Shown here one piece after another: positions 3,391-57,473 of a stretch of DNA of 64,000 nucleotides. The position numbers were made by a program, and so were the translations under genes. Each line of letters begins with the position of its first letter. Position 1 is the stretch's first letter. Location of the stretch: positions 1 through 64,000 of IMG/VR virus record IMGVR_UViG_3300020057_000035. One strand, written 5' to 3'. The notes below the pieces were generated by a model. It saw only the letters and a list, made by a program, of their open reading frames with translations, did no database searches and was not told the origin of the DNA. This DNA comes from a virus.

Positions 3391-3485
3391 TGCGTTTCTC
3401 ACTTCCTGATGTAATCTTAGCACGTCGGGGGATTTGTGTCAAGGGGAGTCGTCGAACATCCCCTCAGCACACTATGTGATTTGTG

Positions 3486-4103: not shown

Positions 4104-4156
4104 TTGGGTCACGTCCTTCACTTGCTGATGTAATCTTAGCACGTCGGGGGATTTGT

Positions 4157-4234
4157 GTCAAGCGGCGGGCTGGCAATCGTTGCAGCCTGTGTCCTTGAAT
4201 AAACCGTAATAGAACAGCACCGCTTGACTTCTAC
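4157..4234 (-). ncRNA. Candidate small structured RNA family 1 (copies 4157-4234, 4652-4729, 5555-5632)
   Basis: Own promoter, no RBS or ORF; terminal stem GTCAAGCGG/CCGCTTGAC and internal hairpin GGCTG-CAACGATTG-CCAGCC. Confidence 0.6.
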
Positions 4235-4460: not shown

Positions 4461-4780
4461 TTTGTTTCCCTCAATTCCTTCTGATGCTATCATAGCATCG
4501 GGGGCGATTTGTGTCAACTACCCTACCCTTGTCCAAGACCAGGGCATGGGTCACGTCCTTCACTTGCTGATGTAATCTTAGCACGTCGGGGGATTTGTGA
4601 AAATTGCTTTTCTCACTTCCTGATGTAATCTTAGCACGTCGGGGGATTTGTGTCAAGCGGCGGGCTGGCAATCGTTGCAGCCTGTGTCCTTGAATAAACC
4701 GTAATAGAACAGCACCGCTTGACTTCTACAATGTAGCACGTCGGGGGATTTGTGTCAAGCGCCGCTCTCGCTTGACATTA

Positions 4781-5455: not shown

Positions 5456-5685
5456 AATATAGCACGTCGGGGAATTTGTGTCAACTCCCGTTCTGTGCTG
5501 CCAAAATTGCTTTTCTCACTTCCTGATGTAATCTTAGCACGTCGGGGGATTTGTGTCAAGCGGCGGGCTGGCAATCGTTGCAGCCTGTGTCCTTGAATAA
5601 ACCGTAATAGAACAGCGCCGCTTGACTTCTACAATGTAGCACGTCGGGGGATTTGTGTCAAGCGCCGCTCTCGCTTGACATAATG

Positions 5686-11665: not shown

Positions 11666-12039
11666 TTTTGTCTGGCACACCATAGGTCGTGTAAGCTGAT
11701 GAATGGTATTTCACTGCCCATGTCGTTGGTCGATTTGGGTCAAGCCACTTTTACTCACAGTAGCAACGGTAGGGTTGCCCGCCCTCGTAATGAGTTGCCA
11801 CTACGATAGCAGCGGGATAACCACTACGGACGTAAACTACCTGAGAATCTTCTGCATTCTGAAGATTGCCCTCTTCTGAATAATTCACGGCGATCCTTTG
11901 TGAGTTCGGAATCCAGACTCCGAAACCATGATTAGTTGCCATTGCTTTTCTCACTTCCTGATGTAATCTTAGCACGTCGGGGGATTTGTGTCAACTGCCC
12001 TCACTTCCTGATGTCATCATAGCATGGGGATCGATTTGG

Positions 12040-12172
12040 GTCAAGGTGGGTAGTTCGACGTTGCATTCTTGGCAGCCCGACCTTCATGAGCCTATTTCAG
12101 CCTGATATGGTCGCCGAACATCCCCGGTCAAACCCGTGGTCTAACTTCACGTAGCCACAACTTGACTTCTAC
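12040..12172 (-). ncRNA. Candidate structured RNA family 3 (second copy ~19669-19790)
   Basis: Shared GGCTAC...GGATGTTCRGCGAYC...CAGGCT...TGCAACGYYGAACTAC with covarying stem. Confidence 0.65.
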
Positions 12173-12242
12173 AATATAGCACGGGAGTAGATTTGGGTCA
12201 AGGAAGGTCTGACTTTCTCACTTCCTCGGGAGGCCGAGTGTG

Positions 12243-12476
12243 TTATGCGCGCCAGGACCGATACTCACACTTGTCACACTCTGGAATGACCCCGTACCCA
12301 CTGCCGTAATTGTAATCCGTGATTAGGACGCCGCATCGCCCGCAGGCGCAGCCGAGCGCTGCCGAGCGGAGCGCCGCGCTTAGGCGATCTTCGTATGATT
12401 CTCGGCTCTCGAACCGAGCTTCAAGTGAGCGCCGTACCTTCGACGGGTCGAATATGCGGGAAGCGATCGTAAGCAT
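12243..12476 (-). CDS. Zn-ribbon micro-protein (CGRC...CDKC)
   Basis: GGAG RBS before ATG 12476. Confidence 0.6.
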   Translation of the reverse strand: MLTIASRIFDPSKVRRSLEARFESRESYEDRLSAALRSAALGCACGRCGVLITDYNYGSGYGVIPECDKCEYRSWRA

Positions 12477-12597
12477 GGTGGGTGTCTCCCTTACCAGTGT
12501 CGGCGTTTCCCGACCACCTGATGTACTAAGTATAGAGTACGTTCCTTCACTTGCTGATGCAATCATATCACGCCGGAGGATTTGGGTCAAGTGATGC

Positions 12598-12807
12598 TTA
12601 TGATACCGTCCAATTGCCAGTAGCAAGTAGCATTTTAGCCTCGGCCTTCGTGCGTGCCGTGTAGCGATATCCAGCAGCATAGCCTATCTCGTCCTGCTGA
12701 ATGGTGAGTACGTCATAACTCTCACCATTAAGATCGCGAAACTCTATCGTTACGGGTCCAGCTTCACGAACGATATGGGTTCGAGTGACGATGAGAGGGT
12801 AGGGCAT
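12598..12807 (-). CDS. Cassette micro-protein
   Basis: ATG after repeat. Confidence 0.7.
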   Translation of the reverse strand: MPYPLIVTRTHIVREAGPVTIEFRDLNGESYDVLTIQQDEIGYAAGYRYTARTKAEAKMLLATGNWTVS

Positions 12808-12852
12808 TTCTTTCACTTCCTGATGTAATCTTAGCACGTCGGGGGATTTGTG

Positions 12853-13053
12853 TCAACTGCCCTTGTGGTCGATGTCCCATGTTTTCGCAGCATCCCGCAA
12901 ATCCCGTGTGGTAAGCAATCCAGCCGCTACCATTTCCAATGCCGCAGCCATCGCCCAATGTCGAGCATCATCAGGATTATCCCGATTATCGAATGCCAGA
13001 TTTACGTTTCGCATCGTATGCGTGTGCTCGATAGGACGGTTAAGAACAAGCAT
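12853..13053 (-). CDS. Duplicate of cassette 4260-4460
   Basis: Identical protein. Confidence 0.75.
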   Translation of the reverse strand: MLVLNRPIEHTHTMRNVNLAFDNRDNPDDARHWAMAAALEMVAAGLLTTRDLRDAAKTWDIDHKGS

Positions 13054-13364
13054 TTTGTTTCCCTCATTTCCTTGATGTAATCATAGCACGCTGGGCTATT
13101 TGTGTCAACTACCCTACCCTTGTCCAAGACCAGGGCATGGGTCACGTCCCGTCACTTGGTAAGACCATCGTAGCACGTCGGGAGATTTGTGTCAAGGGAA
13201 GTCGCCTTCACATCCATATATGCCAGATGTGTCCATTTCCTAGGCCGGGTAAAAATAATTCCCCGCGCAGTGCAATATCACTACTTCTGGCGACTTCCTT
13301 CACTTCCTGATGTAATCTTAGCACGGGAGTCGATTTGTGTCAACTCCCGTGCAGTGTTATTTGT

Positions 13365-13613
13365 TTACCATCGGCGATCGATGCTGGCGAAGGCGTACGC
13401 GCCTTTTTCTTCGGGATTGATCCAGAACGATAGCGGAGCATGGCCCGCGTATGTTTCGTTCCTATCGCCCGGCTGGTAAACGTGAAGCGCATAACCGTTC
13501 GTGCGAAGATAGTCGGCAGCATCGTCCACGTTCAATTCAACGCGAACCGTGCGACCTTCGCCGTTGCGAATTGCTATCGGGTACTCATAGGTGACTGGCA
13601 TGGTGTTCCTCAA
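13365..13613 (-). CDS. Cassette micro-protein
   Basis: ORF between repeats. Confidence 0.7.
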   Translation of the reverse strand: MRNTMPVTYEYPIAIRNGEGRTVRVELNVDDAADYLRTNGYALHVYQPGDRNETYAGHAPLSFWINPEEKGAYAFASIDRRW

Positions 13614-13666
13614 TTCCTTCTGATGCTATCATAGCATGGGGATCGATTTGAGTCAACCCGTCCTGC

Positions 13667-13876
13667 CTAGAATCGAGATCCTAGGCAATTGAGAGAGATC
13701 GCATCTCCAGCGATATCAATCCCGTTAGGCGGGTTAGATTCTACGTGTACCATAGCACCACAATTTTGACACTGCGCCCACGCCCACGCTGGCCAATGAT
13801 GGAATTGACCCATGCTATGCCCATGCCACGTGCAGGATTCGAGTGCAGATTTTCGGAGTGTCTTAACTGATGCCAT
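13667..13876 (-). CDS. Zn-binding micro-protein (CxxxGH...CQNC)
   Basis: ORF between repeats. Confidence 0.7.
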   Translation of the reverse strand: MASVKTLRKSALESCTWHGHSMGQFHHWPAWAWAQCQNCGAMVHVESNPPNGIDIAGDAISLNCLGSRF

Positions 13877-13917
13877 GGTGGTTTCTCACTTCCAAAGTTT
13901 AACTTCCTGATGCAATC

Positions 13918-14139
13918 TTAGCACGTCGGGGGATTTGTGTCGAGTGCCCGCCATACGATGGCCCAGACTTTGCGAGCGGCGGCGTAGGCGTCAAGGTGGG
14001 CGGCGATGGCGGCGGTGTAGGCATCGTGTCGCTCGTCGCCACCCAGCGCATCGAACGCCTCACGGGCGGCGTCTGTCAATGCGTTGAGAGCGTCGGCTGA
14101 TGCAAACACTTCGCGGTAAACGGTGGCGTAAACAGGCAT
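13918..14139 (-). CDS. Ala-rich cassette micro-protein
   Basis: ORF between repeats. Confidence 0.65.
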   Translation of the reverse strand: MPVYATVYREVFASADALNALTDAAREAFDALGGDERHDAYTAAIAAHLDAYAAARKVWAIVWRALDTNPPTC

Positions 14140-14335
14140 GGGTCACGTCCTTCACTTGCTGATGCAATCTTAGCACGTCGGGAGATTTGTGTCAAGTCGC
14201 CTTCACATCCATATATGCCAGATGTGTCCATTTCCTAGGCCGGGTAAAAATAATTCCCCGCGCAGTGCAATATCACTACTTCTGGCGACTTCCTTCGACT
14301 TCCTGATGTAATCTTAGCACGGGAGTCGATTTGTG

Positions 14336-14506
14336 TCAACGACACTTGTCCGAGGCCCATCGCGGGCCGAATTCCTTGCATTTGGTAAAGGCGATCCTTC
14401 GTGCGTGTTTTCCCCAGTGCCTTGCAATGCATGTCGTATGGATCGGATGCATATCGAAGATGGGCATAAATTCTTTACCGCAACATCGGCAGATAATTGT
14501 TTCCAT
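14336..14506 (-). CDS. Cys/His-rich micro-protein
   Basis: ATG 14506 after repeat. Confidence 0.65.
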   Translation of the reverse strand: METIICRCCGKEFMPIFDMHPIHTTCIARHWGKHARRIAFTKCKEFGPRWASDKCR

Positions 14507-14656
14507 GGCGTTTCTCACTTCCTGATGCAATCTTAGCACGCTGGGAGATTTGAGTCAAGTTATCGACGGTCTCGATTGTGCTTACCACATTTCTGCATTT
14601 GTGTCAAATCGAACAAATGATAAGGCTGGTGATCTGATATTTATTACGATCCCCAA

Positions 14657-14672
14657 TGTTTCACGTGAAACA
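14657..14672. promoter_or_regulatory. parS: parS palindrome
   Basis: TGTTTCACGTGAAACA. Confidence 0.85.
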
Positions 14673-14770
14673 CTTTTTCACGATTTTTTCGATTTAATTG
14701 AAAAAAAAAAACGATTTGGGGGTCGCACGCATTATATATGCGTATATTAAAAAATCACGGAAAAATCCCC

Positions 14771-15154
14771 CTAACCATGCGCATTACATTTTTCATTTTT
14801 CAAATTGCTCTTTACTATAGATTCAAAAACCCAATTTCTTAGAAAAGGAAATTCAAGTCTTATCTCTTCTAAGTAATTCTTTCCTCCGCATTCAATAAAT
14901 CCTTCCGCCCACTGCTTAATTTGAAAATTAAGGTTGACTTTGCCCTGTAATGCGGAGAATAACAACCTGGGATGCTTAGTTGAAGCCCTTTCCCCATTCT
15001 CCCACTTCAAAAATGCTTTATTAGCTGAATAACCATTATTTTCTTTCTTAATTATGGGATTACTCCCGTTAGTAGGGGGAATGAAGCTTTTATCCCATAA
15101 TCTGTACCATTTTACATATATCCAGAAATCAGGATGTATTTTTTCATTTTTCAA
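14771..15154 (-). CDS. AT-rich hypothetical protein
   Basis: 127-aa ORF. Confidence 0.6.
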   Translation of the reverse strand: MKNEKIHPDFWIYVKWYRLWDKSFIPPTNGSNPIIKKENNGYSANKAFLKWENGERASTKHPRLLFSALQGKVNLNFQIKQWAEGFIECGGKNYLEEIRLEFPFLRNWVFESIVKSNLKNEKCNAHG

Positions 15155-17009
15155 ATTATTTCTACTTTAAATTAAGCCTCCTCTTTTACTGCCCTTCTAT
15201 CTCGGAACCTAAACCACCAAATAATTCTACGTGCGGTGTGCGACCCTATCATATCACCAGCATTTCTGTTGCAAATGCACGGAACGACTGGTCCTCCGTT
15301 CCCGCGCCACATGTTTGCACGTGCTTTGTGATCGCCGCGTTCGCCGCGATCTCGTCCCGGAACATTGCACGACCTACTGAGCACGCACATTGAACGGCTA
15401 TCCAGCCTCGATCAGAAGACACTAGAACTTCGAACATGACCATTCTCCTTGAAATAGAGCTGCATGGCGATCTATTCGCCATATTTCAAAATTCAAATTC
15501 TAGATTTCAATTTCTAAATATAAAATCTAGTTTCTGAAATCTTTAATGTCTAATCTATATGTGCGAGATACGGATCTCTATCTGATAGTTGTGTACCAAT
15601 ATACTCGTATGAAATTAGATTCAATTTGACCATTTCATCAATGATCCTCATTGCCCACGCTCGGGATTCTATTTTTTTGTTCACGTTGAGGTAAGCGATT
15701 GATTTGCTTAGTGCTCTGTTGATCTCTGTTCTATCTGTCATATTTACAGATTACCACTCTGTGAGATTTGTGTCAAGTCTATCTGTTTCTCTTTAACTCT
15801 TCGACTTACGTTTCGTTTATTGTACTCTGTTTTTCGTGTGTTTGCTTCTCTTGAGGTTTCGTGCTCCCATACTGGAGTACCAGTGCTGTCAATGTAGTTC
15901 GGACGTGCATATTTGATGCGGGGATCATCGTCACCATGATATTGTACGTCTTTACGTCCTAGATCAATCCATCTCTTTGGATCATAGACTTCTCGTCCTT
16001 TGCGCCCTATTAGTTCGGCCATGCTGTATTGTGTACCTCTTCCTCTATTTTGTTTTGTTCTTCTTGGTGTTCTTCTGCTTGTGCTTGTGCATCCGACCAA
16101 TCACTACTAGATCCTACGGAATCATTACAGTCATAGCAGAAAGCGACGTATCCACTATAGGGATGATCGTCACAGCATCCCCCACGGTCTGAGACACTTA
16201 CTTCGTGTTCCATTACTCTATGAACAATCCCGCAATCGCGAAAGTGAAACAAAGAGTAGCGAAGAAGAATAATTCAAACATTTACTTTTTCCTTCAACGT
16301 AATTGTGTTTTTTAATATGCCCTCAATACTGAACCCAAGTGCTCCAATCTCACAAAGATTGCTGCAATAGGTCAGCCGTAGGCTTGATGTGCTCTTAGAC
16401 GTTGTGTATATCGTCTTGCATCGCTCACAAACTTTCATCGTGTCCACCTTTGTATTGTTTCTAACTACTCACAGTGTATCATCAAAGGGCATTTGTGTCA
16501 ATAAGCATAATAATGAGTGCTCTTTCCCTAAACCTGTCAAACCTAGATATTTGGGGTACGTAACCATGCGTGAATCGCTTTGTGTGTATATTCAATTTCT
16601 ATGATATCCAGGACTTGAGGAAAGAACTGTTGAGTAGGGGAGAAACGTCCATTGCGAAGAGAAAAAGCCAATTGATCCATATTTTTGATTTCTAGCTTTT
16701 CATCACTTTCGCTTTGTATTCTTTCATACAAATCAATAAACAATTCCATCTTATCTTCATTCAGTGTACTCGAAAACCAACTAGTCATATAGTTTCTCCT
16801 GTAGTGTGGCGCACTTTTCTGCATCATCATCTGGGGCCGCCCGCGTTGGCCTTGTGACGTTGCCCGCCCAAAATGTGAGCAACGTCACGCTCGTCGGGTA
16901 TGCCGGTCGCTGGTTGTTGCGGCCCACCTTCACGAGATCAGTCATCATAGGGGCCAATCCGCTAGCAGGTCCCATGCGTTTGCCACAAGTTCGCAGGTGG
17001 CGGCGGGCA

Positions 17010-17339
17010 TCAATCTTCGTTAGGATCATCGTCGAAAAATACGTGCATCGAAACTACTCGACCCTCTCGATTCTTCTCTACATATACGGGATAAAATCCA
17101 TCACCGTAGCCTGTTTCCACTGCTACAGCATAACCGCTGTCTAGGTCACCTGAACGTTCCTTAGAATTTGATGCTTGACAAGCGCCCTCGTAGCTATATG
17201 CGTATGGCAGCTTACAATCCTCTGGCTCTAAATTAAGATTGTTTCCATGTGTAACAAACCGATCAAGATAGCAGGGATCGCCTACCATCACCTGACCAGA
17301 ATCTACCATCACTTTGCCCACAAGTTCCATTATGTCCAT
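17010..17339 (-). CDS. DUF4241-like protein
   Basis: VDSGQVMVGDPCY and TGYGDGFYPVY motifs. Confidence 0.65.
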   Translation of the reverse strand: MDIMELVGKVMVDSGQVMVGDPCYLDRFVTHGNNLNLEPEDCKLPYAYSYEGACQASNSKERSGDLDSGYAVAVETGYGDGFYPVYVEKNREGRVVSMHVFFDDDPNED

Positions 17340-17867
17340 CCTTCTTTTTTCCTCTGTGTACTTAATATACCAGACTTAGGTATTTGTGTCAACTCCCGTT
17401 CTGTACTGCCACGGGACTGCTCGCCATGCGGCATCTTCCGCCTTTGCTGTTTCATACCACGCTTCATCTTCGATGGGCATAGGGTGGGAAGATTTGCGCC
17501 TCCAACTACTCGCCATCCTTGCAGTGCTTTCTGCCTTTGCAGATTCACGCCATATGGCGTAGGCTATGTCGAAAGTATTTATTGACACTTCTTTGTTCCT
17601 CATTTCCTTGATGTAATCATAGCACGCTGGGAGATTTGTGTCAAATTATCTTTGTGCGCGCAAAGTCGATCATCCAACGAATACCAGAAAGAGTATCTGC
17701 TTTAACATAACCATAGTCTGGTACTAGGGCGGAATACATGTCTGAGTGCTCAATACGATCAACGGTTATTCCATGATAGGTGCGTAGTTTCATGTTTGTT
17801 CCTTTTCCTTGGTGCGTTTATTGTAGCAGCAGAACCTATTTGTGTCAAGTGACACGTTGTGTCAATC

Positions 17868-18251
17868 TTAGAAAGGCACATATACCCTGAATAGTGGGGG
17901 ATGCACCCGCCACATTTCCATGCGATCCGCCGCACTTAATTCATAGCCCTCTCCGGTTCCCATAATTCCTTCGCCTTCGATATGATTCAGCCAAAGGCAA
18001 TGACCGACTTCGTGTGTAATAATCTTCTGTTGAAGCTGAGCAGGATATGTTTGCCATACTGGTGGTACCCAGATTACACAACTGCCTTCAGCAACATAAG
18101 TCCATGCGGCCCAAATGCGTTCATATTCGCGAAAATCTACATTATCACTAGTAGACGAATCATGTACCTGAATATCAGGTACAGTAAACATGGAACCAAG
18201 GGCACTCCATAATGCAAGGGCAATCATCACCATTGTTTGTACTAATCCCAT
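17868..18251 (-). CDS. Secreted or membrane-anchored metzincin (matrixin-like) zinc metalloprotease
   Basis: HEVGHCLWLNH zinc motif plus downstream GIM Met-turn; hydrophobic N-terminus. Confidence 0.75.
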   Translation of the reverse strand: MGLVQTMVMIALALWSALGSMFTVPDIQVHDSSTSDNVDFREYERIWAAWTYVAEGSCVIWVPPVWQTYPAQLQQKIITHEVGHCLWLNHIEGEGIMGTGEGYELSAADRMEMWRVHPPLFRVYVPF

Positions 18252-18253
18252 AT

Positions 18254-18574
18254 CTAATCTCCGTCTCCGTAGATTGATTTGTATGCCACCGTATGCCACC
18301 GTCGAGCGGTGCTATGTGCGATCGCAACATCGTCGGAAGAAAAGTATTGGGGGAAAGTGAGAGCAACGATTGACCAATCGCAATCCTCTTCGTAGATACC
18401 TTCTTCTATACTCCACCTGGAATCAATCTCGGCGTTCCTACGCTTGCCTAGAATGTAGCCGCCGTGTGACGGAGTTTCGTACCTGATGATACCAGGGCCA
18501 TAGGTACGAGCGGTCTCCGACGTACCCCACGGGGTGCTGCGCTTGACATATCGTGCTTCTGGTTCTGTGTACAT
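18254..18574 (-). CDS. Conserved phage/MGE protein (STPWG...TPSHGG...YEEDCDW; DUF7007-like)
   Basis: Motif recognition. Confidence 0.65.
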   Translation of the reverse strand: MYTEPEARYVKRSTPWGTSETARTYGPGIIRYETPSHGGYILGKRRNAEIDSRWSIEEGIYEEDCDWSIVALTFPQYFSSDDVAIAHSTARRWHTVAYKSIYGDGD

Positions 18575-18627
18575 GTTCTTTCCTCACTTGCTTGATGATG
18601 TAATCTTAGCACTGAAAGGTATTTGTG

Positions 18628-18924
18628 TCAACCACCCATAAGGTTGGAAGCATCAGATGTATACCACCTATAGATGGCATCTAGTGCTATACGTGCTGGC
18701 CTGTCTCCACCGTGCTCAAATTCTTTTACTGTGAGATTGGCGAGTAGGTTGTATGCAAATGCGATTGCCAATTGTGGATAGAATGGTGCGGCATTCTTCG
18801 CTGCCTGTTTTGTACCATATGGACACGCCCATCCATAATCCAGAATCACATCGTACAGCGTCTCAGGGACTGCTATACACGCTTCCGCTCCGCCATAGTG
18901 TGCATGAAACAATTTGTCTTTCAT
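18628..18924 (-). CDS. Hypothetical protein
   Basis: GAGGA RBS after promoter. Confidence 0.7.
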   Translation of the reverse strand: MKDKLFHAHYGGAEACIAVPETLYDVILDYGWACPYGTKQAAKNAAPFYPQLAIAFAYNLLANLTVKEFEHGGDRPARIALDAIYRWYTSDASNLMGG

Positions 18925-19296
18925 TTTGCTTTCCTCGACTGTTCTGTGATGTAATCTTAGCCTAGATTGAGGTTTGTGTCAAGGTGCTTACACCCAAACT
19001 TAGATCCACCGTACCAATGCCCTTCCCACATAGTTCCACTAAGAATATACTGCTGGATATTGTTCCTATGTGGGGAAAAAGGATCTTGTTGTGCAATCCT
19101 AGCAAAGACATTCAATACCTTGATCTTTTCTCTGATAGTAAGCTCATGGAAAGTACGTGCCGCTACAATGTATGCCCTATTATTACCGAAGGACAACGGA
19201 ATTACGGTTGCTTTCATTTTCTTTTCCTCATTCGCTTTTTCTTGTTGATGTAATCTTAGCACGATAGGGGATTTGTGTCAAACAGGCTTCGGTAGT

Positions 19297-19587
19297 TCAC
19301 TTTACCCTGATGGTTACGAAGTAATGATGGTCACAATCATCATCTTCTGAGCACTCACACAATTGTGTGTAGTTCCCTGAGTATGCGGAAGTATCGATCG
19401 TACTGGTATCGTAACCTTGATGTGTAATCTGCTCACAAGCGTCCTCTGCCGCATCACGCTCGCTTTGACCAATACCTGTAGCAAGGTCGTCGAAGTCCAT
19501 ATAAGACTGACGCCAAAGATTGAGAGTAAAGTATTGGCTATGATCGTAGGATATCTCGATGTCGTATTGTTGAATCTTCCTCAACAT
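19297..19587 (-). CDS. Acidic hypothetical protein, paralog of 10320-10610
   Basis: Paralogy. Confidence 0.75.
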   Translation of the reverse strand: MLRKIQQYDIEISYDHSQYFTLNLWRQSYMDFDDLATGIGQSERDAAEDACEQITHQGYDTSTIDTSAYSGNYTQLCECSEDDDCDHHYFVTIRVK

Positions 19588-19668
19588 TTATTTTATCCTT
19601 TCAAGAATTTTCCATCTTTGTTTCCTCGATTGCTTGATGTACCTATAGTATCATCGCTCTTGATTTGT

Positions 19669-19965
19669 GTCAAGTAAGTAGTTCAGCGTTGCACTATCGG
19701 CGGATGTATCTTCCTCATCCCGATTAAGCCTGTGTAGTGATCGCTGAACATCCTAAGTACTACCACTACATGATAACCGTCAGTAGCCAAAGGCATAGAT
19801 CCCCTACCTCTTCAATGAGCCGATAGGGGTAACTACCTTCTATGAAGGCGCACGGTTGTTTTACCCGTGCCTCATCCTGCGCCTACAGGGCAGACTTCTG
19901 TCGTCAAAAATACAGGTACCGGGATTCTTTACGAATTAGGAACCCATACGCATTTTTGACTTCTT
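19669..19965 (-). ncRNA. Multi-hairpin non-coding cassette ending in a family 3 domain
   Basis: Promoter at ~19965-19995; stem GTCAAAAATGC/GTATTTTTGAC plus further hairpins; no ORF in the track. Confidence 0.55.
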
Positions 19966-20476
19966 AATACTAACACCCTAGAGCATTAGTGTCAAGTCTG
20001 AATAATTGTTATTTAACCATAATAACTAAGGTGTCTTTGTGTTCTTGCACTTTGCTTTAACTTTAGTGCGTCTTGATGTTTTAATTGCCCTCTTATTAAC
20101 CGCATGAGGGCTAAGCGTTGCCGTCTATTTCGTGCTGTCACTCTACTCGTTGCCCGCAAGGTAGATGCCGGTTTGATGTCGCAACGGTCTGGGCTTTGGT
20201 ACTCACCAGACTGTATTTCGATACCCGCTGTTGCAACAGATAGGGTTTGAATAGCGTTGCTTCAACTCATTAAGAATAGCACACTGGCTAATTTGTGTCA
20301 AGTGGTCTGACTCACAAACCAGACTGTACGATTATTTATCACCAATCAACCTACACACGGGTTGCGTAGGCCACTCCCACTTCGTCAGTGAACGCGGTTT
20401 CGATAGCACTTGACTTCTTAAGTATACCTTAAATAGGTATTTGTGTCAACTTCCTCATGGAATTGCCACACAGAAA

Positions 20477-54965: not shown

Positions 54966-57473
54966 TTGTCAAGTGAATTAAGTCCAATTGACGCCATAAA
55001 ACAAATGGCGAAAGACAACTTAGCAATATACATTAGTTTAGTTCATAAAACAGATAGTGGAGGAATGGCAATTCCTCCAGCGCATATCTTAAATAAAATA
55101 ATTCCAGTACTAGAAGACGAAACTAACGGACATACACTAATTATTGCTCCTCCCGGTAGTGCAAAAACCAATACAATGATCGCTTACTGTTGTTGGTTAT
55201 TAGGCAAAAATCCTAATTTACATATTGGGTATTTGAGTTCTACTTCTACTCAAGCAACACAAAGATCTGTTGCTATTAGAGATATTATAGATTTAAGTAA
55301 AGAATATAGAGATATATTTCCTTTAACTTTGCCTGATAAAAGTAGAGGATGGGCAGAAGCAGAATGGTTCGTTAAGAGAGCAGATGTAGGGGATAAAAAT
55401 GCCTCTATGATTATATCTGGTACTCCGGGAAACATTCTTGGTTCTAGATTAGACTTAATTGTGTTGGATGACATAGCGGATGAAGAAAATATGGCAACTG
55501 CTTTACAAAGAGCAAAGGTTATTAACTTTCTGCAAAAAACAGTAGATACAAGACTAACTCCATTAGGTAGAATAGTACTAATCTGTGTTACTGGAGACAG
55601 TAAAGTATCTACTAATAAAGGACCAATAGAAATAAAGGATATAAAAATTGGAGATCTAGTTTGGTCTTTAAATGAAAATAAACAATTTGAATTACAAAAA
55701 GTAACAGATCAATTTTCAACTGGGATAAATAAAGTATTTAAAGTATCTACTAGATTGAAAGAAGTAAAGGCCACTGCATATCATCCATTTCTTTGTATTG
55801 AAGATGATGGATCTTTAGTATATAAAAAAGTAGAAGATCTTAAGAAAAGAGATAAATTAGTAGTTGAGCATGAATTACCTGAATATGGAACACCATATGA
55901 ATTATCAGATGGAACATTTACAGACTCTGATTTTATGTGGTTATTTGGGTTTTTAACTGGAGACGGGTGGGTAACTGCTAGAAATAGAGCCGCCAAATGG
56001 CTTGTTTGTATGGCAAAAGGTGTGCATAAAGAAGTTAATGATAAAGCTTTTTCTCTGTTTACTAAATTCGGAAAAAAAGAACCATCCTATACTAGATTTG
56101 GGTATTGGAGATTAGATGATGCCCCTACTGGTAGATACGGATTCAAGAGAAACTTAGGACAGATACTAATAGATGCAGAATTTCAACAAGGAGCATGTAA
56201 TAAATCTGTTCCTGATTGGATTTACACATTACCTAATGATCAACGTAAGGCTTTTATTCTTGGTCTTTTAGCGGCGGACGGACATAAAGGCACTTATTCT
56301 AATAATTCATATATATTATCCTCAGTAAGTAAGTGTTTAGTTGAGAAAACAAGACTGTTAGCTATGACGTGTGGGATTACACCAGCTAAATTACGAGAAA
56401 GCACTAGAATAATACAAGCACCGCACTCTAAAGCCCCGTCTCTTCACACAGAATTCTCTTGTTCTTTTAATTTTGATTATAATGTAAAAAAGAACCATAT
56501 TATTCATAATAATGGTTTACATTATGAGTTTGTTAAAGAAATTGAGTATTCAGGAGAGGAAGAAACTTTCGATATTACAGTAGAAAACACACATAACTTT
56601 GTTGTAGACGGTATGACAACCGCAAATTGTACGAGATGGTCAGAATCTGATCCAGCAGATTGGGCAATGAAGCAAGGCTGGAAAAAAGTACATATTAAAG
56701 CAATAGATGAAGAGGGCAGAGCTTACTGGCCTGATTATTGGCCTATTGAGAGATTAGCTTGTCCTGATAACATACATGGTAAGATTTTATTAACTGATGG
56801 GGGGAACGCATGCTACATGCAACCACTGCCTTCTGGTGGATTTAGACCAATTAACTGCAAGAAAAGAGCAGGTTCTGTTGCTTTTGCTCAACAGTATCAA
56901 GGTGAAGTATTTGACGAAGAAAGCAGTATAATCAAAAGAAGCTGGTGGAAATCATATGAAAAACTACCAGAAAGTACAATAGAAAAACCAATAGATTTAA
57001 TAGGCGGTATCTTTATTGATACTGCACATACAGAAAAAACATATTCTGATTACTCTGTAGCAACTGTCATGTATACAGATGGTAATAAGTTTTATATAGA
57101 AAACTTAATGAGAAAAAAATTAGAATTCCCTAGACTAAAAGATGAAATTAAAATTATTAAATCAAGATATGACTTACCGCTCTATATTGAGTCAAGTGTT
57201 GGTTCCTTAGCTTTAATTTCTGAACTTAAACAAGATTTTCCAGACGTAATAGCGTGGGAAAATAAAGGAAAAAGTAAAATGACCAGAGTACAATCTATTA
57301 TAGGTAAAATAGAAGGCAATGGTGTGTATCTAAAACAAGATTCTCCTTGGGTAGAGGACTTTATATCAGAATGTGAAGCTTTTCCACACGGAAGACACGA
57401 TGATCAAGTAGACGCTTTGTCTATGGGTTTAATGATTCTTGGTCCAAGTAAGATTGTTTGGACTACGATCTAA
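54966..57473 (+). CDS. terL: Terminase large subunit with intein
   Basis: Walker A APPGSAKT, Walker B IVLDD, TRW...D, QQYQG, nuclease IDTA/DYS/HDDQVDA. Confidence 0.9.
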   Translation: MSSELSPIDAIKQMAKDNLAIYISLVHKTDSGGMAIPPAHILNKIIPVLEDETNGHTLIIAPPGSAKTNTMIAYCCWLLGKNPNLHIGYLSSTSTQATQRSVAIRDIIDLSKEYRDIFPLTLPDKSRGWAEAEWFVKRADVGDKNASMIISGTPGNILGSRLDLIVLDDIADEENMATALQRAKVINFLQKTVDTRLTPLGRIVLICVTGDSKVSTNKGPIEIKDIKIGDLVWSLNENKQFELQKVTDQFSTGINKVFKVSTRLKEVKATAYHPFLCIEDDGSLVYKKVEDLKKRDKLVVEHELPEYGTPYELSDGTFTDSDFMWLFGFLTGDGWVTARNRAAKWLVCMAKGVHKEVNDKAFSLFTKFGKKEPSYTRFGYWRLDDAPTGRYGFKRNLGQILIDAEFQQGACNKSVPDWIYTLPNDQRKAFILGLLAADGHKGTYSNNSYILSSVSKCLVEKTRLLAMTCGITPAKLRESTRIIQAPHSKAPSLHTEFSCSFNFDYNVKKNHIIHNNGLHYEFVKEIEYSGEEETFDITVENTHNFVVDGMTTANCTRWSESDPADWAMKQGWKKVHIKAIDEEGRAYWPDYWPIERLACPDNIHGKILLTDGGNACYMQPLPSGGFRPINCKKRAGSVAFAQQYQGEVFDEESSIIKRSWWKSYEKLPESTIEKPIDLIGGIFIDTAHTEKTYSDYSVATVMYTDGNKFYIENLMRKKLEFPRLKDEIKIIKSRYDLPLYIESSVGSLALISELKQDFPDVIAWENKGKSKMTRVQSIIGKIEGNGVYLKQDSPWVEDFISECEAFPHGRHDDQVDALSMGLMILGPSKIVWTTI
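55584..56627 (+). mobile_element. Intein in TerL (LAGLIDADG type, ends Ala-Asn)
   Basis: I|CVTGDS...TAYHP...HNFVVDG.TTAN|CTRW. Confidence 0.88.

Follow-up and report, generated by a model that had tools for sequence, protein, structure and literature searches.

The virus record IMGVR_UViG_3300020057_000035 of IMG/VR comprises 111,848 bases and is estimated to be 73% complete; its first 64 kb make up the window analysed here, to which positions refer unless stated otherwise. Bases 1-29,500 of the window hold an early array of about 70 sigma-70-type promoters, placed by consensus, every one of which lies on the minus strand, with units of 50-400 nucleotides (nt) between promoters. An exact extended -35 motif, TTGACNCAAATC, stands at 58 of them, against 0.05 occurrences expected. 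Within this array, the minus-strand stretches 12156-12040 and 19788-19669 are homologues, two copies of an element of about 120 nt (115-125 nt), which is probably a real RNA of an uncatalogued kind. The features of the two copies and of their surroundings are collected in Table 1.

Table 1. Positions, within the window, of the two copies of the element, their helices, promoters and neighbouring genes.
Feature	Position	Strand	Description
GGCTAC	12156-12151; 19788-19783	minus	motif in both copies
GGATGTTCRGCGAYC	12123-12109; 19753-19739	minus	motif in both copies
TGCAACGYYGAACTAC	12065-12050; 19693-19678	minus	motif in both copies
CTTGAC	12045-12040; 19674-19669	minus	-35 region of next promoter
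Copy 1 core, P0-P4	12048-12124	minus	alignment A2, pair counts, RNAalifold; R1 103 bits
Copy 2 core, P0-P4	19675-19755	minus	alignment A2, pair counts, RNAalifold; R1 106 bits
P0	outermost		3 bp (4 bp in copy 2), then conserved 2x2 loop AU/UA
P1	inside P0		8 bp, the stem of the first-pass annotation, then internal loop AY/CAA
P2	inside P1		3 bp in copy 1, 5 bp in copy 2, then internal loop
P3	inside P2		3 bp, GGC/GCC, then 7-nt bulge on the 5' side (U.AAU..)
P4	innermost		5 bp; purine-rich 9-nt apical loop A.GAAG.U.
Copy 1 5' hairpin	12136-12158	minus	GGCUAC on 5' strand; predicted folds; no covariation, weak support
Copy 2 5' hairpin	19765-19787	minus	GGCUAC on 5' strand; 8 bp and one bulge; predicted folds, weak support
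Third-copy relic	3438-3465	minus	P0/P1 5' strand, 16/17 bases identical to copy 1; R1 10.9 bits
Cassette 1 promoter, sigma-70-type	12173-12201	minus	TTGACC-17-TATATT, TG extended -10
GUCAAG, closing-stem 5' strand	12161-12166	minus	predicted start site, 7 nt past -10; part of leader GTAGAAGTCAAG, which lacks a ribosome-binding site
CUUGAC, closing-stem 3' strand and next -35 region	12040-12045	minus	next promoter 12044-12016
Composite cassette promoter	19967-19995	minus	TTGACA-17-TAGTAT; leader TAAGAAGTCAAA
Next promoter, directly 3' of copy 2	19645-19673	minus	TTGACA-17-TACTAT; drives 96-residue gene 19587-19300
P0001, 96-residue orphan gene	19300-19587	minus	directly downstream of copy 2
P0002, paralogue of P0001	10323-10610	minus	69% amino-acid identity to P0001; 1.4 kb downstream of copy 1

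When the promoter hexamer is excluded, copy 1 (12160-12046) and copy 2 (19795-19675) align by blastn with an E value of 1e-5 and 70% identity over 76 nt, and they are each other's only significant match in the record, the next best having an E value above 0.04. The same searches also pick up a 16-nt relic at 3463-3448 and nothing further in the genome, and a covariance model built from both copies (R1) finds no third full copy in the record. The word "family", used in the first-pass annotation made from the sequence, thus means two paralogues in one phage. The motifs quoted there are all present, on the minus strand, with one small slip, in that copy 1 has CAGGCT-G-AAAT and not CAGGCT.AAT. The terminal CTTGAC lies outside the element's own conservation and is the -35 box of the following promoter.

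The 3' 88-89 nt of each copy were aligned (alignment A2), and a nested structure was first derived by hand. RNAalifold, run independently on A2, gives exactly this structure, a bulged hairpin of about 80 nt with 22 base pairs (bp). Both copies form standard pairs at all 22 positions: five differ by double, compensatory changes, four by wobble-type changes (G-C/G-U or like), and none is broken. The stems thus vary by compensation, while the internal loops, the 7-nt bulge and the apical loop hold their sequence. The first-pass annotation had proposed a structured RNA from a single compensated stem, GTTCGGCG/CGTCGAAC in one copy and GTTCAGCG/CGCTGAAC in the other; its sequences are as quoted there, one of its pairs having changed on both sides (G-C to A-U) and another from G-U to G-C, and the proposal is now supported by four stacked helices whose 22 bp are 100% paired in both copies. 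When the partners are slid by 1-3 columns, pairing falls to 25-46%.

The consensus energy of the fold is -26.55 kcal/mol, compared with -6.6 +/- 2.6 kcal/mol in column shuffles (z -7.6, 0 of 1000 as good). Since the structure came from the same two sequences, a second null was added in the form of simulated neutral divergence: 29 randomly chosen positions, as many as differ between the copies, were changed in each copy, over 2 x 500 trials. The mutated copies retain 13.5 of the 22 pairs on average, with a maximum of 19 and never all 22, and the observed energy was never reached (0 of 1000). The case for the fold depends on the conservation of pairing rather than on stability. The reverse-complement (plus-strand) alignment yields only -11.95 kcal/mol, and four G-U pairs render the fold strand-specific. 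The minus strand folds far better, and the fold therefore belongs to the strand read by the promoters. A further possible pairing was seen by eye in both copies, between the 3' half of the apical loop and the GAYC that separates P1 from P2 (A2 columns 16-19 with 48-51, window positions 12112-12109 with 12082-12079); one of its pairs is C-G in copy 1 and U-A in copy 2, a double change. It could be a pseudoknot or an alternative fold, and is too weak to claim.

Upstream of the core the two copies have less in common. Their 5' domains give no BLAST alignment and share only UGGCUAC-N5-GUUA, which lies 27-29 nt ahead of the core, with equal spacing in both. Folding predictions place GGCUAC on the 5' strand of a probable hairpin preceding the core in each copy.

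Neither copy had been credited with an open reading frame in the first-pass annotation, and indeed none is common to both. A conserved short peptide, which that annotation had raised as the observation that would speak against an RNA, was looked for by six-frame translation of both copies, and no frame is open in both.

The duplication appears to be old. Copy 2 lies next to the 96-residue gene P0001, copy 1 lies upstream of its paralogue P0002, and this arrangement suggests an old duplication of an RNA-plus-gene unit. The two genes share 78% of their nucleotides, 70% at third codon positions, and 8 of 16 four-fold sites are identical. The identity of the RNA core (64-70%) is no higher than that of these near-neutral codon sites of the co-duplicated genes; the copies are therefore old, and selection on structure, rather than recency, best accounts for their intact pairing. 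Both proteins are acidic and carry a C-terminal CEC...C.HH motif. A protein search retrieved only two relatives, with 48-55% identity, on contigs of 0.9-1.2 kb from ENA and JGI metagenomes, which implies that related phages exist in nature and are barely sampled. The AlphaFold model of the 96-residue protein has a pLDDT (predicted local distance difference test score) of 58, too poor to judge RNA binding.

The two copies differ in the way in which they are placed in the array. In both the minimum-free-energy and the centroid fold of copy 1, the first six bases from the predicted start, GUCAAG, pair with the CUUGAC (12045-12040) of the next promoter, and copy 1 is thereby modelled as a stand-alone RNA cassette of 127 nt, its ends clamped as in stable RNAs. 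Its leader, GTAGAAGTCAAG, has no ribosome-binding site and also tops six other units that lack plausible open reading frames; the coding units have TACATCAGGAAGTGA instead. In those other RNA cassettes, the closing stem is lengthened by differing but complementary bases to a total of 8-11 bp. Copy 2, on the other hand, closes a non-coding unit of 292 nt, of which it is the final module and whose start lies at about 19960 (cassette fold z -3.1). The two modules upstream of it (19796-19960, minus strand) are unique in the genome; one is a 58-nt hairpin with GUCAAAAAU/AUUUUUGAC as its closing stem, the other a two-hairpin domain of about 105 nt. The junction TTTTGAC-GACAGAAGTC within this region resembles what would remain if a promoter lost its core and its -35 box were joined to a leader.

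Several further observations concern the RNA cassettes as a group. The promoter-leader units of the two kinds of cassette differ, in that RNA cassettes (for example the promoters at 12173-12201, 5632-5661, 20420-20449 and 19967-19995) combine a -10 box TATATT, TACATT, TATACT or TAGTAT with GTAGAAGTCAAG, and mRNA cassettes combine TAAGAT or TATGAT with TACATCAGGAAGTGA. Within the early array, the minus strand has 15 instances of the hexamer GCAACG, where 7.5 would be expected, and nine of them (24756, 20260, 20153, 20121, 19692, 12064, 5581, 4678 and 4183, minus strand) fall inside about 1.7 kb of non-coding cassettes of four RNA families; the hexamer may be a common recognition motif. A triplicated 79-nt RNA cassette (4156-4234, 4651-4729 and 5554-5632, minus strand) has ACACAGGCU joined directly to GCAACG, while in copy 2 the two are parted by a 33-nt insert that forms P3-P4. 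This overlap between RNA families could reflect module exchange or chance. Ordinary promoter function does not explain the conserved CAAATC of the extended -35 motif, which could be a signal for processing, recombination or factor binding.

Recombination between promoter repeats clearly shuffles the array, which contains empty promoter units, a truncated relic and triplicated cassettes. The relic consists of the 5' strand of P0/P1 joined directly to the next -35 box, and this truncated third copy (3465-3438) shows turnover by recombination. One empty unit (11995-12044) carries a full promoter and a leader with a ribosome-binding site but no gene, the next promoter coming 21 nt later, and looks like the scar of promoter-repeat recombination. 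Nearly all downstream genes have their own promoter, and terminator-like sites show no excess (8 found, 8.4 expected from shuffles). The G+C content of the array is 45-52%, against 29-35% in the remaining phage, which codes for tRNAs, ribonucleotide reductase, ThyX, TerL with an intein, SufB with an intein, RecA, DnaB, PolA and TnpB. A chimeric assembly is argued against by the array promoter motif, which is also seen once within the low-GC part (35656). TerL is at most 30% identical to that of any cultured phage, and the phage thus has no close cultured relative. The SufB/SufD-type iron-sulphur assembly protein (record positions 78495-80981, minus strand) is split by an intein with a LAGLIDADG domain, and further inteins interrupt TerL (window positions 54966-57473) and another protein of 850 residues.

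Searches outside the record returned little. Motif patterns of the element gave 12 matches in IMG/VR, JGI metagenomes and GTDB genomes, all of them in coding or GC-rich unrelated DNA and none scoring with R1. The promoter-array signature gave single chance matches or nothing in IMG/VR and GTDB, blastn in near and distant modes found no match among GenBank phages, and neither the adjacent 96-residue protein nor the DNA polymerase led to relatives in IMG/VR. At gathering scores, the 4227 models of Rfam 15 detect only tRNAs in the whole window, and under permissive filters (E values up to 10 for both copies and up to 5 over 1-30 kb) only noise-level matches to snoRNA or tpke11 appear. Neither copy is matched by ARAGORN or by Rfam RF00005, and Rfam and ARAGORN together rule out identities resembling the signal recognition particle (SRP) RNA, 6S RNA or tRNA. 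The segment A.CAGG...GCCAAG resembles SRP domain IV, but neither copy obtains an Rfam SRP score, even at E values up to 10. In the genome of phage HK022 (NC_002166), where homology to the put elements was sought with R1 and filters off, the best score is 8.7 bits (E 2.4), and this homology was also rejected.

The explanation favoured here, to which about an even chance is given, is that of an expressed and selected non-coding RNA, a small RNA that binds protein. Both modules would be transcribed leftward from the early promoter array by the sigma-70 RNA polymerase of the host, and the selected unit would be the rod-like hairpin P0-P4. The transcript of copy 1 would begin at GUCAAG and pair with the CUUGAC of the next promoter, such that both ends are clamped. 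The small RNA, produced in the first minutes of infection, may then dock a protein as a decoy or regulator, the candidates being a factor of the host, a component of a defence system or an early protein of the phage.

A number of points weigh against this explanation. The fold is backed by two sequences from a single uncultured genome, together with one decayed relic, and the relic itself is evidence that copies can be lost. No homologue emerged from IMG/VR, JGI metagenomes, GTDB genomes or GenBank phages. Folded singly, the copies have ordinary z-scores of -0.6 to -1.6. No covariation is seen in the 5' hairpin, which falls in different registers in the two copies, and copy 2 lacks both a promoter of its own and the closing stem. 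No intrinsic terminator was found after either copy; by default the element would thus be the 5' part of a longer read-through transcript, and a discrete RNA would need processing.

Among the other explanations, the principal one is a cis-acting element of the nascent RNA of the HK022 put type, which would bind the polymerase that made it, as put does at the beta' zinc-binding domain, and make it resist pausing and Rho-dependent or intrinsic termination throughout the long and partly untranslated early array. The layout of put is paralleled in copy number and placement, with predicted bulged stem-loops, copy 1 starting at about +1 from its promoter and copy 2 at about +170, and several untranslated cassettes downstream would be natural Rho targets. 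This explanation is nonetheless unlikely: R1 finds no match in HK022, the element measures 115-125 nt and put about 70 nt, there are no credible minus-strand intrinsic terminators downstream, and with a promoter before nearly every downstream gene, read-through is not obviously needed. A leader or operator of the co-duplicated 96-residue gene, serving autoregulation by the gene product or stabilising the 5' end of the transcript, would account for the presence of both copies upstream of paralogous genes, which have diverged to a similar extent, and for the direct contact between copy 2 and its gene. A base-paired 5' end is known to protect bacterial mRNA, and the paired 5' end of copy 1 would fit such protection. 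What makes this role improbable is the promoter that stands between each RNA and the gene, which leaves much of the gene's mRNA without the element, as well as the three other genes and two promoters between copy 1 and its paralogue; stabilisation, moreover, would need just a simple hairpin.

It is improbable to the same degree that the copies are functionless intergenic filler, duplicated and spread by recombination between promoter repeats, with the pairing left over from an ancestral hairpin. The visible shuffling of the array and an RNA identity that does not exceed that of near-neutral codon positions would suit such filler, yet neutral drift at 29 differences should break about 8 of the 22 pairs, and in fact none is broken and five have changed on both sides. 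In each copy the conserved 3' block (about -38 to -57) lies immediately against the -35 box of the promoter that follows, as might be expected of a signal at the DNA level, be it a protein operator, an UP-element-like site for the downstream promoter or a hairpin of single-stranded DNA. A single protein binding both copies would keep its half-sites identical instead of allowing complementary changes, the half-sites are about 54 bp apart, and the G-U pairs make the fold strand-specific, all of which renders a DNA signal very improbable. A short conserved peptide is harder still to credit. The ATGs in the apical loops stand in the same alignment frame and open frames of 28 residues in copy 1 and 11 in copy 2, with 4 identical and 2 similar residues among 10 aligned codons. 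These frames differ in start and length and lack a convincing ribosome-binding site, that of copy 1 continues through the next promoter, and stops in copy 1 interrupt the 37-residue open reading frame of copy 2. The compensatory partners lie outside the short frames, which therefore cannot explain the double changes.

Readings of the early "host-takeover" regions of large phages usually treat them as sets of tiny orphan proteins, and here a non-coding element in such a region keeps a complex fold through about 33% divergence. If it is expressed, the element would represent a new structured RNA class in phage early biology and a compact case in which to ask what is bound, whether polymerase, as by the put RNA, or factors of defence or RNA decay. 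A promoter hexamer that also provides the closing strand for the RNA upstream of it would be a case of dual coding within a shuffling array. A wider proposal, possible but doubtful, is that the element belongs to one of several unrelated, promoter-driven families of structured RNA genes located beside micro-protein genes in a first-expressed takeover array, where the -35 hexamer would supply the closing stem and CAAATC possibly a processing site, and that these constitute a new class of phage RNA capturing a host protein (e.g., RNA polymerase or a defence nuclease). If so, RNA would join small proteins as a modular, shuffled currency of host takeover by phages.

Among known systems, RNAs C and D of phage T4 (species 1 and 2) are small, stable, structured RNAs made early by the host polymerase; they sit in the tRNA operon and are excised by tRNA-processing enzymes. 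The present element, in contrast, is 14-22 kb distant from the tRNA genes and bears no resemblance to tRNA. With 4.5S/SRP RNA and 6S RNA it shares a long hairpin whose sequence is conserved in the internal loops and not in the stems; it differs from them in its apical part, with the 7-nt bulge and 9-nt loop, and none of their Rfam models scores at E values up to 10.

The array as a whole resembles the promoter-early stem-loop (PeSL) cassettes of T4-type phages in its dense, repeated, strong sigma-70 early promoters, small orphan genes and cassette shuffling (PMC2839356, PMC4122927). The stem-loops of PeSL cassettes, however, are short terminators, and their cargo consists of protein genes (PMC2839356, PMC4122927), whereas here the cargo is a complex RNA of 80-125 nt, no terminator is present and the -35 box forms one strand of the closing stem. 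A search for PeSL features found the promoter repeats, with terminator-like sites no commoner than in shuffles, and the array is PeSL-like in logic only.

The putL and putR sites of HK022 are two similar RNAs of about 70 nt, each with two stems and bulges, which act in cis on RNA polymerase; one comes just past an early promoter, and the other is reached after a few hundred nt of transcript (PMC9378689). They differ from the present element in the lack of homology, in their smaller size and in the absence here of evident downstream terminators. Of the two put-type stem-loops, the second (5') one can be drawn in both copies, without covariation. In both systems, two diverged, non-coding copies, here with a predicted fold of bulged stem-loops, each lie downstream of an early sigma-70 promoter, and by this analogy the putL/putR pair would be the closest functional counterpart of the element.

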